Assembly: GCA_010405405.1 (NCBI GenBank) | Contig: MU004231.1 | Span: 2,908,401-2,972,400, forward strand | Source of the DNA: Microthyrium microscopicum | Lineage: Eukaryota | DNA: 64,000 nucleotides | Reading direction: 5' to 3' | Notes under the pieces: generated by a model | The model's database searches: none | Seen by the model: only the letters and a program-made list of their open reading frames with translations | What the model was told of the DNA's origin: nothing | Shown here: one piece after another, positions 2,610 through 42,823 of the stretch | Numbering within the stretch: the stretch's first letter is position 1 | Layout: every line of letters begins with the position of its first letter | Program-made: the position numbers and the translations under genes

Positions 2610-3709
2610 GTTCTCTAGTACTTCCTCCACGATGGAAGTCCTCGACAGCAGTATTGATACAGCGGGAGAAGAATAAGGTCTCGAAATCACAATGAAATGT
2701 GGTCGGAGTCAACCAAAAGAAGAGCTCCTTCAAACGAAGCGTAGTACTCGCAATTGCAATATAATCGCGTGGAAAAAATGGTGTTGAGTTTCAACTTTCA
2801 ACATGAAGATCACCAAAAACAAAATCGTGAACAGAGGAGCATAGAAGCGGCCTCAGTGGTATGGATGAACGGAAGATGCAGTCAGACCATTCGCGACTTG
2901 AATACGGACAGCAGATATCGGTCTACTCCAAGACTCAAGCCAAGCTCGCATTGCCTGGAAATCCAGCCAGCAACATCAGGCTGTGCTTCAAAGCGGCTGA
3001 GAACTGCACTCCCATGCGAGAGTACACATCGCGCGACCACAAAATCTAGGCCACAGAGTCCAAGCCTGGCGAATAAAGGCCAAGATCGGGGGCGCCTTGA
3101 GCGGGGCAGCGAATTGAATTGGTGGCGTCTGACCTGCAGGTAGGTCTTTTGGCATATTTTCGTGCCTTTGACCGGTCTGATAACTCTTGTCCGTGGAATA
3201 TCAAGGTTTGGCGCTGATAAAAGATTCATATTTCGATCCGCGTTAGCAAAACTTGCTCCCAGAACTTGATTTGTTTGCGCTTGCTCTCAGGAGATATGCT
3301 AGACTGAACGTTAAATGCCTCACGTTGAACTTGTATATAGTCGGACACAATTATGTGGCGTAACTATTTTTGGAAAGTTAGAGAAAACACGAACTAAGTT
3401 TATCTGTCTGCGCTCTTGGCTAAGAGGGGATTAAAACTTAGTCTCATATCGCCTATAGAAAAGATTGGCGGACAGAGATCTGAAACAGTGTAAAACCTCT
3501 ATTGGTAACTTCACAGCTTCATCTGTCCATGTTTCTACAAGAGCATACCAGGGATATCAGCAACGCACGATCTGGAGCTTTGAGTAATTCAAAAAGCCAA
3601 GGTATCTGGCTCAACTGGATGTCCTATCATTTCGAAAAGGTCAAACTGCTGTAATACAGTATAGGCCTTGACCATTGAAGCTCAAATATTCTGATTGAGC
3701 GTCATTATT

Positions 3710-5233: not shown

Positions 5234-5305
5234 GGACTGTTGGCGCAATGGTAGCGCGTTGGTTTTCGGCACCAAAGGTTGCGCGTTCGAGCCGCGTGCA
5301 GTCCT
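5234..5305 (+). tRNA. tRNA-Arg, anticodon TCG, intronless
   Basis: Cloverleaf: acceptor GGACTGT/GCAGTCC, D arm GCGC-AATGGTA-GCGC, anticodon stem TTGGT/ACCAA with loop TT-TCG-GC, T arm GCGCG-TTCGAGC-CGCGT. A T10 Pol III terminator follows at 5315-5324. Confidence 0.92.
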
Positions 5306-33426: not shown

Positions 33427-33602
33427 TACGGAGCTGCTTGCCTGTTCCTTTGTTGCTCCCAAACAACCTGAAGTTACCCTAGGTGGCAACCAAGACCTGA
33501 TACGGAGTACAGTGTGAGATTTCTCATACCACAACTTATGTACCAATTCAAAATCATTCGTTTCTTTTTTCTTGTCCGACTGGCTACAATCATCATCACA
33601 TA

Positions 33603-35189
33603 ATGGAGCGTCCCAACAAGCGCCGAAAATTAGAGAGCTTCGAACGACCCATCAGCCCACCACCTCGCAAATCACGAGATCCAAATATTGTCCCATCACC
33701 AACTGTCGGTACAAAAGATACGTCTGAAAAAAACACAGCCAAAGCAACCTCATCTTCAGATATACCTCGAAAGAGCGCATTCCGATTAACCACCATCTCC
33801 GACCTCGATGACGCTAGCAACATCGACACAATCTCCATCCAGGATATCCTCGGTGACCCACTCTTGAAAGAAGTATGGCTTTTCGACTATCTCTTCAATC
33901 TAGACTTTTGCATGAGCCAGTTCGATCGCGATGCCTTAGTCCAAGTCAAGATTGTCCACGGAAACTGGAAGACGGAATCGCCTATGCGTCAGCACCTGGA
34001 GGAGGCGTCCAAGAAATTTGACAATGTGGAAATTATATGTGCTTACATGCCTGAGCCGTTTGGGACTCATCATTCGAAAATGATGGTGCTGTTTCGACAT
34101 GATGGTTTTGCGCAGGTTGTTGTTCATACGGCGAATTTGATTCCGTTTGATTGTGAGAATATGACGCAGGGTGTGTGGTTGTCGCCTTTGCTGCCGGGTT
34201 TGAAGGACGACGGCCGGGATGAAGAAGGCGAAGAGCATGCGTTGGGGACGGGGGAGCGGTTTAAGGTTGATCTGTTGAGATATCTGAAGCAGTATGGTCG
34301 GAAGACGAAAGAGCTGGTGACTCAGCTTGAGGCTTTTGACTTTGCGGCCATACGGGCTGCGTTCATTGCCAGTGCGCCGACAAAGGAGATGCTGAACGAG
34401 AGTTCAACTTCAGATTATACGGCTTTTGGCTGGCCTGGATTGAAGCAGGTGCTGAAGACTATCAATAAGGCTTCGAAAGCTGATGATACTGTGGTCATGC
34501 AAGTATCTTCTATTGCTACGCTGAACGAGAAGTGGATTGATAATTTCAACGAAGTACTGCACACGCAAACCAAACAAGCGAGCCTTGGTATCAAGAGCAA
34601 AACACGACTAGTATGGCCGACAGTAGAGGATGTTCGACTCTCCTTAAATGGATACGAATCTGGTGGAAGCATTCACCTCAAAGGCACCAGCAAGGCTCAA
34701 AAGAAGCAGATCATTTCTCTAAGATCCATGATGTATCGATGGAGTGGAAGCTCAGTACCACCGGCAAGTAGCTCTGCATCAACCACCGGTAATGCCATGC
34801 GTTCCCTAGCCGCGCCGCATATCAAGACCTTCATACGATACTCGCAAGACTTTGGCAACATTCGCTGGGCGCTGTTGAGCTCCGCCAATCTAAGTACGCA
34901 GGCTTGGGGTGCTTTACCTGATAAGGAGGGACGAGTGAGAATATGCTCATGGGAAGTTGGAGTTATGATCTGGCCCAAGCTGTTTGAGACTGAAGATGAA
35001 AGCCTAGACATGGTACCAGTATTTGGTCAAGATGGTTTGGATGGCGACGATTCAAGCCCCAAGTCTATCCCACTACGTATACCATACGATCTTCCCCTTC
35101 AGCGCTATACTCAAGACGATGAACCATGGTGCACCACAGAAGCACACTCTGAGCCCGACCACAATGGCATGGCATGGCCAGCACGGTAG
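33603..35189 (+). CDS. TDP1: Tyrosyl-DNA phosphodiesterase 1
   Basis: 528-aa ORF with two HxK catalytic motifs (FGTHHSKMMV, APHIKT), plus SANLSTQAWG and SWEVGV. Confidence 0.95.
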   Translation: MERPNKRRKLESFERPISPPPRKSRDPNIVPSPTVGTKDTSEKNTAKATSSSDIPRKSAFRLTTISDLDDASNIDTISIQDILGDPLLKEVWLFDYLFNLDFCMSQFDRDALVQVKIVHGNWKTESPMRQHLEEASKKFDNVEIICAYMPEPFGTHHSKMMVLFRHDGFAQVVVHTANLIPFDCENMTQGVWLSPLLPGLKDDGRDEEGEEHALGTGERFKVDLLRYLKQYGRKTKELVTQLEAFDFAAIRAAFIASAPTKEMLNESSTSDYTAFGWPGLKQVLKTINKASKADDTVVMQVSSIATLNEKWIDNFNEVLHTQTKQASLGIKSKTRLVWPTVEDVRLSLNGYESGGSIHLKGTSKAQKKQIISLRSMMYRWSGSSVPPASSSASTTGNAMRSLAAPHIKTFIRYSQDFGNIRWALLSSANLSTQAWGALPDKEGRVRICSWEVGVMIWPKLFETEDESLDMVPVFGQDGLDGDDSSPKSIPLRIPYDLPLQRYTQDDEPWCTTEAHSEPDHNGMAWPAR

Positions 35190-38298: not shown

Positions 38299-40586
38299 AT
38301 GGCTCACGATTCTGAGCTCATGAAAGGCAAGCCCGTTGAGGACAACAACGATCCGACGCTGCACTCCCCCGAAGATGGCGACAGCATGACTTCAGATGAA
38401 CGATACTTGGTAAGATCAACAACATGAGCAGCAACAAGTCAAGAATTCAGATACAGCCTTCCACCATATACGCGCAGATAGCAGGTAAGTATAGCCTCCG
38501 GTCGAAGCTAATTCATTGGTGATGATTCTATCTCTGGCGAGAGAGAATTTTGCGTGAACAGCTTTGATCTCAAATTGGCAACGCGGGTGTCCCTAATTGC
38601 CGTCTCTTGTCATGAGAGCGGCGATATGGGTCTGAGATTATACCGCATGAACTTGATCGCTATCATGAGCGCGTAAGGAGTAGCTATGAGATCTTTCGAC
38701 AACTTCTGTTCCCATCACGGTGAGAGATATTCTAACAACCAGGTAGCAATCTCTCGGCTACAAGCAAGTAAGTGATTACGAGAGATTGTACCTGATTGCG
38801 CTAATTGAGAAGCTCCTTCATCGACAATGGAGTCTTTTTGAAAGCTTCGCTGCAAGTTTTGGTGCGTTGCGAAAAGACTACTTTCATCGGACAGTTTCTT
38901 ACTGATGTAGCTGCACTTTACTCCGTCGGAGGTGTTCGAGTGACTTTCACTATTGGTGTCGGTGCTGGTGGACCGGCCGCCTACTGGCACGTCTATTTCT
39001 ACTTCGGCGAACTCTTCTTGCTAATAACAGAACAGGTCAAGCTATGTTGTTACTTGTTTTTTCGTAACTATCACAGCAGCCGTGCTGGCAGAGATCTGTT
39101 CTGCACTTCCTGCTGCAGGATCTATCTACTTGTTTGTATTCTGCGATCCTCGAAAAGTCAGCTTCTGACTAGGTTATAGCTGGGCAGCTGAGGCTGGTGG
39201 CCCCAAATATGGCAGACTCTTCGGTTTCATTGTTGCTTGGTGGAGCACCACTGCATGGACAACCTTTGTGGCCTCAAATAGCCAAGCGGCAGCCAACTTT
39301 CTCCTATCGGAAATCTCGGTCTTCAATCTGGACTTCTCAACTGATGTTAACGACATCAAGTTTCGCGCCGTCCAATGGATTGTAGCAGAAGTGATCCTGT
39401 TCATCAGTATCGGCACAAACTATTTTGGACCAAAGCTGTACAAATGGATCTTCAAGGCGTCTGTCGGTATCATTTTGCTGGATTTCCTTCTGAACATCAT
39501 CTGGCTGCCAATTGCTGTATCAAAAACTTATGGATTTCAGGATGCCAAATTTGTGTTCACCGAAACTCGCAATGAAACTGGAGCTCCACCGGTCTGGAAT
39601 TGGATGCTTTCCTATTATGTTACTGCCGGCATCTTGGTTGGCTTCGAAGCAAGCGGACATATATCTGAAGAGACCAAGAACGCAAGTATCACTTCCGCCC
39701 GAGGTATCTTTACTTCCGCAGTTGCCTCTGCTTTAATAGGGTTTCCGTTGGTGATCTTGTTCCTTTTCAGTATGCCAAGTTTGGACATCATCTATGGCTT
39801 GGGTGCTCCCCAACCATTCGTTCAGCTTTATGCTATGTCAATGGGACGTGGAGGACATATCTTCATGAATATTGTCTGCATAGCTGGGCTCATGCTCGTA
39901 AGTTTGTCCTAGTTTCCAGGTACGCGTAGCTCATCTTGAACAGAACACCTCTATTGCGGGTATTGCGGCATCCCGACTCATCTGGGCTGTTGCCAGAGAC
40001 GGAGTCTTGCCATGCTCAGGCTGGATTTCGAAAGTATCAGACAAGAAGGAGCCCAAAAATGCTGTAACGGTCATGTTGATTGTTGCGGCACTCCTCCTGT
40101 GCACAATTCTACCCTCTCCAGTAGCCTTTACGTCTTTGGTCAGCGCAGCTGGCGTGCCAACTATCACTGCATATGCTTTGATATCATGTAAGGGTCTTCC
40201 AAACTCTCAACAACCGATACTAACCTTCTCAGTTGGTCGAACTTTCCTGACACCTCACGGCTTCAAGAATGCTCGTTGGTCACTAGGCCGCTGGTCACGA
40301 CCATTGAATTTCATCGCCTTCGTCTGGAACCTATATTTGGCTGCCATCCTATTCTCGCCACTTTACTTCCCGGTGACTGGAGCAACACTCAATTGTAGGC
40401 CAAGGCTGTGCAACTATAACTATTGCCGAGATGTGCTAACGTCGTCTAGATTCGCCTGTCATCTTTGGTGCCATAACCATTTTTGGCTTCATTTCCTGGC
40501 TGGTTGTTCCAGATGATAAGTGGCTGCCATCTGAGCGCATTGGACGACTCCAGAAGACTGTTGAAGCTGATCCTCACCTCGATTGA
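38299..40586 (+). CDS. APC-superfamily (amino acid/GABA/choline-type) permease, probable Thi9-like thiamine or thiamine-precursor transporter; multi-exon
   Basis: Spliced motifs LGYKQ, LAEICSALPAAGSIY, GFEASGHISEETKNA, SRLIWAVARDGVLP and WSLGRWS. A TPP aptamer lies in intron 1. Confidence 0.88.
38566..38693 (+). promoter_or_regulatory. TPP (thiamine pyrophosphate) riboswitch aptamer within intron 1 (38410-38746)
   Basis: Conserved core GCGGGTG...CTGAGATTATACCGC-ATGAACTTGAT-CGCT-ATCATG-AGCG-CGTAAGGA. P2 GCGG/CCGC; P3 CCC..ATTGCCG..TCTC/GAGA..CGGCGAT..GGG; P5 CGCT/AGCG; P1 TGGCAAC/GTAGCTA extended by GATCTCA/TGAGATC. Confidence 0.92.
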
Positions 40587-40832: not shown

Positions 40833-42392
40833 CTAATTTGATGGAGTCCACTTCTCCTTGTCTGGTATCTTATTGTACACGTGCTCTCCATGCTTGTAGA
40901 AGACGACCTCATCGCCAACGCGAATCTCTTTATGAAGGCTATCCGCATACGCAATCGCCATCATCCCGAGAATTCCACTACTAGCGCCAGGATCAATTCT
41001 CCATTCTTTGTTGAGATAACTGAGTGGCTGGAATACATCATCGTCGCGCACACCAAGAAGCGGGTCGTTGTTGGGCATTTTGCATCGGGGTATTCTACAT
41101 GGTAGAGCAAACACTATAGGCTCTGGCGGTTCCGATGACTTCTGATCCTCGGCGTCGCTGGTCGATCTTCCCTGGATGGCTAGTCTCTTCATGTGTACTT
41201 CCGAAAATGCCGTAGGCCCGGAGATGTAGATATTCGATCGAAATCGTCGTGAATCAGGTCTATAAGATTTTCCTTTCTTCTTGGCTACCTCCTGTACCTT
41301 TTTCTCGACTTCGTATATGCTAGACATATTCTGTACTGATATAGGGTAGGCATCCTGTAGTCCAACCTTGGTCTGAAATCCTATATCTTCCACACTCGGT
41401 GCATTTTTGTACAATTCTCGTTCAAACCCATCCCGCACTCGGAAAAGAGTAACAGAGTTCGAGATCCCCAGTGTATACGCGAGTTTGCGGAGGATTATTG
41501 GATCAATCTCGCTAGCCATGTCCCAAGATTCTGGAAATTCCTTCCATATCCGCATCTGGTCCAGTTGATACGCCTTCTCCTTGATGCGTTCTTCACAGGG
41601 GACGAGAGGGACGCGAAACTCCACCATATTCCCGACTCTGCCTTTTGATCGACGTCTGAGGAGCATTTCGCTGATAAAGGCGCGGATGCCGGTGCGGTTG
41701 TATTCATAGTCGGACGTGAATGGGAAGCGCACGATGATACAGCCACCGTTTTTCACCCAAATGCTGTCTTCATCGTAGTCTTCTGCGTCGGGATCAGGGA
41801 TCCAGAGCTCCGTTTGAACTAGAGCGAGTTGCGCGGACTCGCGTTGGGTGATGAAATGCCAGGAGTGTTCGGTATTGCCGTCCAGGTCAGGCAGTTTGCT
41901 CTCGAGATGAGCAAATGAGAACAAGCGATCATGAGCTAGTCCAAGGGGCGTGACTGTGGCAGAATCAACTTCAATGGGAGCTGTCGATTTGATGGGATGG
42001 AGGTAGAGAGCCTCGATTCTTCCTTCAAGTCCGGTATTTGCGTACTCCTTTGATATTGAATTTTCCAGATCACTTTCGGATGGTTTTGGAAATGAAGCAG
42101 ATCGAGGGACCTCCTTATATCCTAAAGTGAAGGTCTCGTCGCTAAGATTCCGTTCTGCTTTCCTTCCAAGTCGTCGGCATCCTTCTGGTCGTTTTGGTGG
42201 TCCCAGGTCCTGTCGTACGCCAGATATGATGTCCCAAAGGAATAACCAAGTCCATCTGTAGATAAATGGAATGCCAATTACTAAGAAGACCATTCCTGCA
42301 GACATCCAATAAAAAGCAGTTGGTAATTCAGCATCGTCGTCTAGAGCCTGGAGACGCTCCTTTATGGGCGCATTGTGGGCGGGACACGACAT
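40833..42392 (-). CDS. MOSC-domain (mARC-like, molybdenum cofactor-associated) protein with N-terminal TM segment
   Basis: IEALYLHPIKS, GLAHDRLFSFA, RRFRSNIYISG, CRIPRCKMPN and IRVGD motifs. Confidence 0.85.
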   Translation of the reverse strand: MSCPAHNAPIKERLQALDDDAELPTAFYWMSAGMVFLVIGIPFIYRWTWLFLWDIISGVRQDLGPPKRPEGCRRLGRKAERNLSDETFTLGYKEVPRSASFPKPSESDLENSISKEYANTGLEGRIEALYLHPIKSTAPIEVDSATVTPLGLAHDRLFSFAHLESKLPDLDGNTEHSWHFITQRESAQLALVQTELWIPDPDAEDYDEDSIWVKNGGCIIVRFPFTSDYEYNRTGIRAFISEMLLRRRSKGRVGNMVEFRVPLVPCEERIKEKAYQLDQMRIWKEFPESWDMASEIDPIILRKLAYTLGISNSVTLFRVRDGFERELYKNAPSVEDIGFQTKVGLQDAYPISVQNMSSIYEVEKKVQEVAKKKGKSYRPDSRRFRSNIYISGPTAFSEVHMKRLAIQGRSTSDAEDQKSSEPPEPIVFALPCRIPRCKMPNNDPLLGVRDDDVFQPLSYLNKEWRIDPGASSGILGMMAIAYADSLHKEIRVGDEVVFYKHGEHVYNKIPDKEKWTPSN

Positions 42393-42823
42393 GCTGCTGG
42401 CAACAACGGGTGCCAGACCAGTTGAAGAATAATTACTAGGAGGATCTTTCAGAAAGAAAGGAAAGAGGCCAGCTCATGATGAAAAAAGACCAGCAATTTA
42501 GTGTTTGGCGGTTATTCAGGAGTAGCAGACTGCAGTGGGTTGGCGGAGGTAGCTGACGTTTCAGACCTCAGTCTCGTTTAGCCTCTCCAAACCAACCCGC
42601 TGTCACCTTTCAGCTTTGCGACATCCACCACTCAGCATCAATCGACGCGATTTATCTGTCGCCAACGCGTCTTCGAGTACGGCCTTCACGTTGATTGCCT
42701 CATCACCGTACAATGTTTGGCAGCTTGCGGTGTGCATCTTCCAAGGCAGAATCTCGAGACCTCGAATGAATGCGATGCAGGGGTCAACCACCTCGAATTT
42801 CCTGAGCAGACTGCCGTTCCCAA

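Follow-up and report, generated by a model that had tools for sequence, protein, structure and literature searches.

A TPP riboswitch of the THI9 class in intron 1 of a Thi9-like permease gene of Microthyrium microscopicum, with a proposed OFF switch by choice of 5' splice site

We analysed a stretch of 64,000 nucleotides (nt) of Microthyrium microscopicum DNA (assembly GCA_010405405.1, contig MU004231.1, positions 2,908,401 to 2,972,400 of the forward strand; hereafter the window, in whose own numbering all window coordinates are given). At 38566-38693 it carries a thiamine pyrophosphate (TPP) riboswitch aptamer inside the first intron of a gene for a permease. We read the locus as a fungal TPP riboswitch of the THI9, or amino-acid-transporter, class that switches a Thi9-like permease gene OFF through the choice of one or the other of two 5' splice sites in intron 1, and we put the probability of this reading at roughly 0.65; the gene is most likely shut off by redirected splicing. 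At low TPP, the surroundings of the strong proximal donor S2 (38485) would pair with the P4/P5 arm of the aptamer (38651-38675), masking that donor, so that the weak distal donor S1 (38410) would be joined to the acceptor at 38746; splicing from S1 would remove all 337 nt and yield the 537-residue permease. With TPP bound, P4/P5 would close within the aptamer and S2 would be freed and used. The mRNA would then retain the 75 nt from S1 to S2 along with their two in-frame stop codons, would encode a peptide of 42 residues only, and would probably be a target of nonsense-mediated decay.

The aptamer was recognised in an Rfam scan of the entire 64-kb window, both strands, with 4227 families, in which two matches reached their gathering score: the TPP family RF00059 and one tRNA. 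RF00059 matches 38573-38696 on the + strand over model positions 1-105 of 105, with 54.7 bits (E 5.8e-8) against a gathering score of 54.3, a margin of 0.4 bits. The margin is thin because the window has a 29-nt insertion in P3 and lacks P3a, ten positions being deleted at the bacterial P3a; the core itself is undamaged, and J3/2 CUGAGA, the ACC of P2, GAAC.UGAUC (J2/4-P4) and GCGUA.GGA (P4/J4-1) are all present. An insertion in P3 without P3a is the usual eukaryotic form of the TPP aptamer. Positions 38566-38572 form seven Watson-Crick pairs with 38687-38693, an extended outer P1 that accounts for the limits 38566-38693 drawn by the initial annotation of this DNA. Folded in isolation, this segment has as its minimum-free-energy structure P1, P2, P3 with its extension hairpin, P4 and P5, at -43.7 kcal/mol (z -2.59; equalled by 1 of 200 shuffles). 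The initial annotation had listed the sequence motifs of the core, described P1-P5 as pairable and suggested a search with RF00059: each motif lies where it had been placed, the isolated fold contains all five helices, and the gathering score is reached. The parts of the aptamer are as follows.

38566-38693, + strand: TPP aptamer (RF00059, base-by-base helix check, isolated minimum-free-energy fold, and the class model R1 described below)
38566-38572/38687-38693 plus 38576-38582/38680-38686, + strand: P1
38583-38589, + strand: motif GCGGGTG (sequence)
38583-38586/38643-38646, + strand: P2
38590-38592/38628-38630, + strand: P3, with the extension hairpin at about 38596-38625
38632-38637, + strand: motif CTGAGA (sequence), J3/2 CUGAGA
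38640-38646, + strand: motif ATACCGC (sequence)
38648-38657, + strand: motif TGAACTTGAT (sequence)
38652-38655/38674-38677, + strand: P4
38658-38661/38668-38671, + strand: P5, strands CGCT and AGCG (sequence)
38672-38678, + strand: motif CGTAAGG (sequence)

Judged by its sequence and predicted fold, the element at 38566-38693 is a TPP riboswitch aptamer, and it presumably binds TPP. Intron 1, in which it lies, interrupts the coding region at codons 37/38; its acceptor, 53 nt past the end of P1, is common to two donors.

38410-38415, + strand: S1, distal 5' splice site, GTAAGA, non-consensus, productive (reading frame, homology)
38425-38427, + strand: TGA, first in-frame stop if S1 is unused (translation of the S2 isoform and of unspliced RNA)
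38479-38481, + strand: TAG, second in-frame stop, just 5' of S2 (translation of the S2 isoform)
38485-38490, + strand: S2, proximal 5' splice site, GTAAGT, consensus, giving a non-productive mRNA (spliced contig of run X1)
38732-38736, + strand: CTAAC, branch-site-like, 10 nt before the 3' splice site (sequence), which we take to be the branch site from the fungal consensus
38745-38746, + strand: AG, 3' splice site common to S1 and S2 (contig joint, frame with exon 2)

The transcript data are the contigs of one public run, X1, whose labelling as RNA is a guess; the contigs are spliced, bridging all seven short introns of the gene with exact joints. They show presence, not absence, and their depth figures cannot rank isoforms. 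One X1 contig documents the use of S2: it passes from 38484 directly to 38747, and the 262 nt left out have GT..AG ends. Another is unspliced over 38455-38767, and a third runs without a break from 38302 to 38484, through S1. The S2 isoform retains the 75 nt between the donors, with the in-frame TGA (38425) and TAG (38479). A continuous frame comes from S1 only: 38409 joined to 38747 reads ...DERYL/QSLGYKQ... (the slash marks the joint), a conserved N-terminal motif as found in homologues. A corresponding isoform is seen in a metagenome relative, L004, a 2086-nt contig without introns that reads ...DSDERYL, two in-frame stops, and ...NALGYKQ... (L004:109-1800). Its retained segment aligns to its closest genomic relative, L026, through position 3654, and the consensus donor S2 of L026 starts at 3655, which suggests that L004 represents a non-productive transcript made in a relative of L026. 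An isoform of the S2 type is made in at least two organisms, as the X1 contig and L004 document.

To follow the element through related genes, metagenome contigs were scanned with an alignment of 25 homologues, which gave 80 loci (L001-L080), and a class-specific covariance model, R1, was made from 18 aligned aptamers with P1-P5 given. R1 scores the window aptamer at 87.5 bits and matches 53 of the 80 loci, all at E <= 3.7e-11 and none between that value and E = 1. Counted over the loci that contain the 5' region, the aptamer is present in 53 of 66. The 27 negative loci are made up of 14 without the 5' part of the gene, L004, and 12 genomic loci with the 5' region in which R1 found no aptamer, all of them at most 64% identical to P0004, a homologue from Rhizodiscina. 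A regular-expression scan caught 44 of the 53 R1-positive loci and was dropped for counting.

The 18 aptamers agree throughout in 37 alignment columns, among them every position of CUGAGA, ACCGC and GAACUUGA, and the J2/4-P4 and P4/J4-1 core elements named above are likewise invariant; with 53 of 80 loci positive, this is the conservation of the core in orthologous introns that the initial annotation had named as a check. Standard pairs fill 92.3% of the cells of P1-P5, compared with 33-51% when the partners are slid, and the covariation score is 0.107 against 0.078 ± 0.010, a value that 1 of 500 shuffles attained. In P5, where 100% of cells are paired, three of the four pairs have changed on both sides. 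P2 and P4 do not vary in this set and hence are uninformative on covariation.

The intron keeps its position. In 41 of 44 aptamer-bearing loci a GT stands directly after D-E-x-Y/Q/L-L (the other three have no upstream sequence); in related loci an LGYK-type motif follows 70-130 nt 3' of the aptamer core. The layout of donors was counted on 40 distinct S1-to-aptamer segments, a consensus donor being defined as GT[AG]AGT or GTATGT. S1 is non-consensus in all 40, most commonly GTAAGA; in 35 of the segments a consensus S2 follows S1 before the aptamer is reached, and in each of these 35 an in-frame stop stands between both donors. Control at the level of splicing, as proposed by the initial annotation, is in our judgement the best reading of this conserved two-donor layout together with the stop-bearing S2 isoform found in RNA.

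Some loci depart from this layout. In L017 (2896-3253) S1 and the aptamer are 358 nt apart, about double the spacing in its relative L012, owing to an inserted stretch with repeated segments rich in GTGTC/GACAC, and no S2 was found by the above definition of a consensus donor. The most distant aptamer-bearing loci, L071 and L072 (40-43% identical to P0004, R1 about 46.5 bits), also have no consensus S2, and L072 has in addition no in-frame stop upstream of the aptamer; these two may be regulated differently.

The joints of the spliced contigs give a host gene of nine exons and 537 residues. Intron 1 (38410-38746), at 337 nt, is 6 to 7 times as long as the other seven introns (45-55 nt, all bridged by contigs), so the unusual length remarked on in the initial annotation is real.

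38299-38409, + strand: coding part of exon 1, ATG at 38299, 37 codons ending ...DERYL (translation, splice model)
38747-38767, + strand: exon 2, 21 nt, QSLGYKQ (contig joints at both ends)
38768-38812, + strand: intron 2 (spliced contigs)
38813-40586, + strand: exons 3-9 (joints in spliced contigs, Pfam, 537-residue translation)
38862-38910, 38987-39035 (GC-AG) and 39132-39179, + strand: introns (spliced contigs)
39898-39943, 40188-40232 and 40395-40449, + strand: introns (spliced contigs)
40584-40586, + strand: stop codon TGA (537-residue translation)

PF13520 (AA_permease_2) matches both of the largest exons (E 1.6e-17 and 1.5e-12), in good agreement with the APC-family permease proposed as host by the initial annotation, and PF00324 (AA_permease) also matches above its cut-off. 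The 537-residue protein is 78% identical over its full length to P0004. Its large exon of 240 residues is 100% identical to P0001, named "amino acid transporter [Microthyrium microscopicum]" by its sources, and 82% identical to proteins of other Dothideomycetes. The homologue search gave 382 matches among 2156 candidates; names were taken from 120 listed homologues, among which four from Aspergillus/Talaromyces, at ~61% identity, carry the source name "Thiamine transporter thi9". From these names and the literature, the host appears to be a Thi9-like APC permease and a probable thiamine importer, with thiamine as its presumed substrate.

The deposited gene model for the locus is wrong at two introns. 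P0001 (543 residues) reads through intron 2 (38768-38812), and within 38987-39131 it mis-splices around the GC-AG intron, replacing a conserved transmembrane stretch by unrelated residues. That intron, the fourth (38987-39035, 49 nt), is bridged by a contig whose joint is given as GG..CA with 2 nt of slack, equivalent to GC..AG. The transcript-supported model of 537 residues aligns with homologues end to end.

How the aptamer might govern the choice of donor is suggested by the predicted fold of the whole intron. Left unconstrained, the intron folds without P4/P5, and 18 pairs in three blocks bury S2.

38469-38490, + strand: anti-P4/P5 element overlapping S2, predicted partner 38651-38675 (minimum-free-energy fold of the intron)
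38469-38475/38669-38675, 38477-38482/38659-38664 and 38486-38490/38651-38655, + strand: masking pair blocks (unconstrained fold)

The predicted masking duplex has -23.7 kcal/mol, compared with -15.8 ± 3.6 kcal/mol in controls (300 equal-length windows from the same region), 5 of which were as good. With the limit set at 15 of 300 controls, the duplex stands out in 18 of the 35 loci with S2, many of them close relatives of each other, and a complement of the 3' strand of P4/P5 is recognisable just 5' of S2 in many loci. When P4/P5 variants were swapped, the upstream region of the window ranked its own P4/P5 first of 19, against 18 other variants. A masking element of the NMT1 kind is plausible on these predictions, and unsupported in some clades. 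We dropped the swap test as a proof of covariation, its results being mixed across clades.

One clade of related loci (L030, L048, L061, L068, L069 and L070, about 58-61% identical to P0004) has a GTATGT donor 17-20 nt before the aptamer match. The P4/P5 duplex test is negative for it. The short distance suggests a different geometry, and control in this clade may run through P1 instead of P4/P5.

A number of observations weigh against the reading of the locus as a TPP-controlled choice between S1 and S2 on a Thi9-like permease. The S1 junction (38409 to 38747) is not among the joints of the X1 contigs, which cannot show absence, and for this reason we infer the use of S1 from homology and the reading frame. 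X1 is also a single run, and its S2-joined and unspliced forms cannot be tied to a level of TPP. On the side of the mechanism, the masking duplex is no better than controls in 17 of 35 loci, and the swap test ranks the cognate P4/P5 13th or worse of 19 in 7 of 22 representatives; L042, which with L037 and L076 is a close relative of the window, ranks its own 18 of 19. Within the window's own clade (four sequences) the aptamer side of the masking helix is the same throughout, so that pair counts speak neither for nor against the helix; no compensatory double changes were seen. Furthermore, the alternative fold of the intron is predicted at -94.7 kcal/mol and the aptamer-enforced fold at -75.2, a difference of about 19.5 kcal/mol in favour of the former, which exceeds, as an order of magnitude, what ligand binding would be expected to repay. 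The switch would therefore have to be kinetic, or else the alternative fold is less stable than predicted. That the protein is an orthologue of Schizosaccharomyces pombe Thi9 is a suggestion from the names of homologues and from the literature. Finally, full-text literature searches found no experimental study (ligand binding, thiamine dependence) of riboswitches of the THI9 class.

The same locus could be explained by TPP blocking the removal of intron 1 as a whole, as has been proposed for the single-donor Candida DUR31, with S2 as a constitutive decoy. Such intron retention would fit the unspliced contig over 38455-38767, whose depth figure of 351 compares with 369 for the S2-joined contig, although contig depth figures cannot rank isoforms; access control at a single donor and stops in the unspliced product are also discussed in an extract of PMC5997356. 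A mere decoy, however, would not need the combination of a weak S1, a consensus S2 and stops that is kept in 35 of 40 loci, and the S2 region of the window is complementary to P4/P5. We consider retention unlikely on this balance. Little probability attaches to a long-range loop of the NCU01977 type, in which, without TPP, a sequence between S1 and S2 would engage the P1 3' strand and S1 would be brought near the acceptor. This mechanism is experimentally established for NCU01977 according to a portion of PMC3597705, and the unconstrained fold of our intron does pair 38426-38459 with 38676-38711, including the outer 3' strand of P1. Yet no fitting complement of the P1 3' strand is seen in the nearest relatives, L037, L042 and L076, when these are compared by eye, and the 337-nt intron stands against the 650-900 nt, with a separation of roughly 500 nt, that passages of PMC5882874 give for the NCU01977 type; the same passages confine the mechanism to the urea-transporter family.

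It is also conceivable that the aptamer is an inherited relic without regulation, and that the S2-joined and unspliced forms only reflect noisy splicing of a long intron. A possible loss of function is raised for the less conserved TPPsw-NUC and thi9 riboswitches in a section of PMC8786325, and the RF00059 score of the window is a mere 0.4 bits over its threshold. The low score is due to the P3 insertion, however, and a relic is hard to square with 37 invariant columns in 18 aptamers, with a fully paired P5 changed on both sides in three of four pairs, or with a depth figure of the S2 form comparable to that of the main body of the transcript; we regard it as very improbable. A TPP-controlled choice between S1 and S2, with P4/P5 as the predicted masking partner, is the reading that we prefer.

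The window holds, apart from the permease gene, a tRNA-Arg with anticodon TCG at 5234-5305 on the + strand (Rfam tRNA 56.3 bits, ARAGORN). The frames flanking the permease gene encode a tyrosyl-DNA phosphodiesterase (Tdp1-like; 33501-35189, + strand; PF06087, E 1.6e-135) and a protein with a MOSC N-terminal domain (40833-42473, - strand; PF03476, E 5.3e-10); no thiamine link was found in these two flanking genes.

The detection of the window aptamer by so small a margin has a parallel among its relatives. The gathering score of RF00059 was reached by 3 of the 28 R1-positive loci tested (0/8 and 3/20), and a rescan of 10 loci with a limit of E <= 0.01 identified 7 as RF00059, at 33.5-47.7 bits. 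Surveys that rely on the threshold under-count the THI9 class because the RF00059 score is depressed, apparently by long P3 insertions. To us it is an even call that filamentous ascomycetes widely share the THI9-intron riboswitch as a tightly conserved module, in which a long-P3 aptamer is combined with in-frame stops, an anti-P4/P5 element and two donors, one weak and productive, the other a consensus decoy; that this riboswitch is largely missed by Rfam-threshold surveys, which would perhaps explain its published absence from Ascomycota; and that the two S2-isoform transcripts are the first transcript-level support for the predicted mechanism. The locus couples a vitamin sensor directly to what is probably a vitamin importer, in a Dothideomycete that has been little studied, and it gives the THI9 class a concrete model with exact donors, stops and a predicted masking element. 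The understanding of how eukaryotic riboswitches work is unchanged by it.

The initial annotation had implied that an APC permease, not a biosynthetic gene, was a new kind of host. This does not hold: riboswitches in THI9-type amino-acid-transporter genes are published, and NCU01977, which the initial annotation itself had cited, is a transporter of the urea-transporter family in the relevant part of PMC5882874. In Neurospora crassa NMT1 and THI4, as outlined in excerpts of PMC3597705, P4/P5 nucleotides block the proximal 5' splice site without TPP, and NMT1 is an OFF switch at high TPP, as we propose for the window. The window shares with these genes two alternative 5' splice sites and a P4/P5 arm complementary to the region of the proximal donor. 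The NMT1 layout differs in that its intron lies in the 5' untranslated region and repression acts through upstream open reading frames, whereas the window intron splits codons 37/38 and carries in-frame stops; moreover, NMT1 and THI4 encode biosynthetic enzymes and the window a transporter, for which the mechanism is predicted. With N. crassa NCU01977 and Candida DUR31 the window has in common a coding-region intron in a transporter gene and alternative donors that lead to stop-bearing mRNAs. Those genes belong to the urea/DUR3-like family, however, and have an intron of 650-900 nt, several alternative donors and an alpha-alpha' pairing to the 3' strand of P1, the long-range alpha-alpha' pairing of NCU01977 being described in the same excerpts of PMC3597705.

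Closer to the window stands Schizosaccharomyces pombe Thi9 (Vogl et al. 2008, as cited in an extract of PMC5997356), likewise a permease of the APC superfamily, whose name is borne by homologues of the window's protein. Taphrinomycotina, Pezizomycotina and Basidiomycetes are reported there to have riboswitches in their THI9-type genes for amino-acid transporters (citing Moldovan et al. 2018), and an excerpt of PMC11683625 counts 'TPPsw-AA' among the groups present in Ascomycota. The accessible text of PMC5882874, in contrast, calls the amino-acid-transporter class "widespread in Basidiomycota but absent in Ascomycota", and the host of the window is a Dothideomycete by the source name of P0001. 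The Type III layout sketched in that text has an internal intron, 200-400 nt long and within the coding region, two donors separated by a stop, and the acceptor just past the aptamer. This is what the locus shows: a coding-region intron of 337 nt, an acceptor 53 nt after P1, donors at 38410 and 38485, and stops at 38425 and 38479. Like the THI9/'TPPsw-AA' class, the window has an APC-family gene, of apparent Thi9 type, in which an intron close to the 5' end holds a TPP aptamer, and it has a predicted splicing switch built from two donors and an intervening stop. With this class already in print, the element is not novel in kind. It is a further member of the described THI9 class and not a new type of switch, and what it adds to that class is transcript evidence for the S2 isoform together with a conserved layout of a weak S1 and a strong S2.

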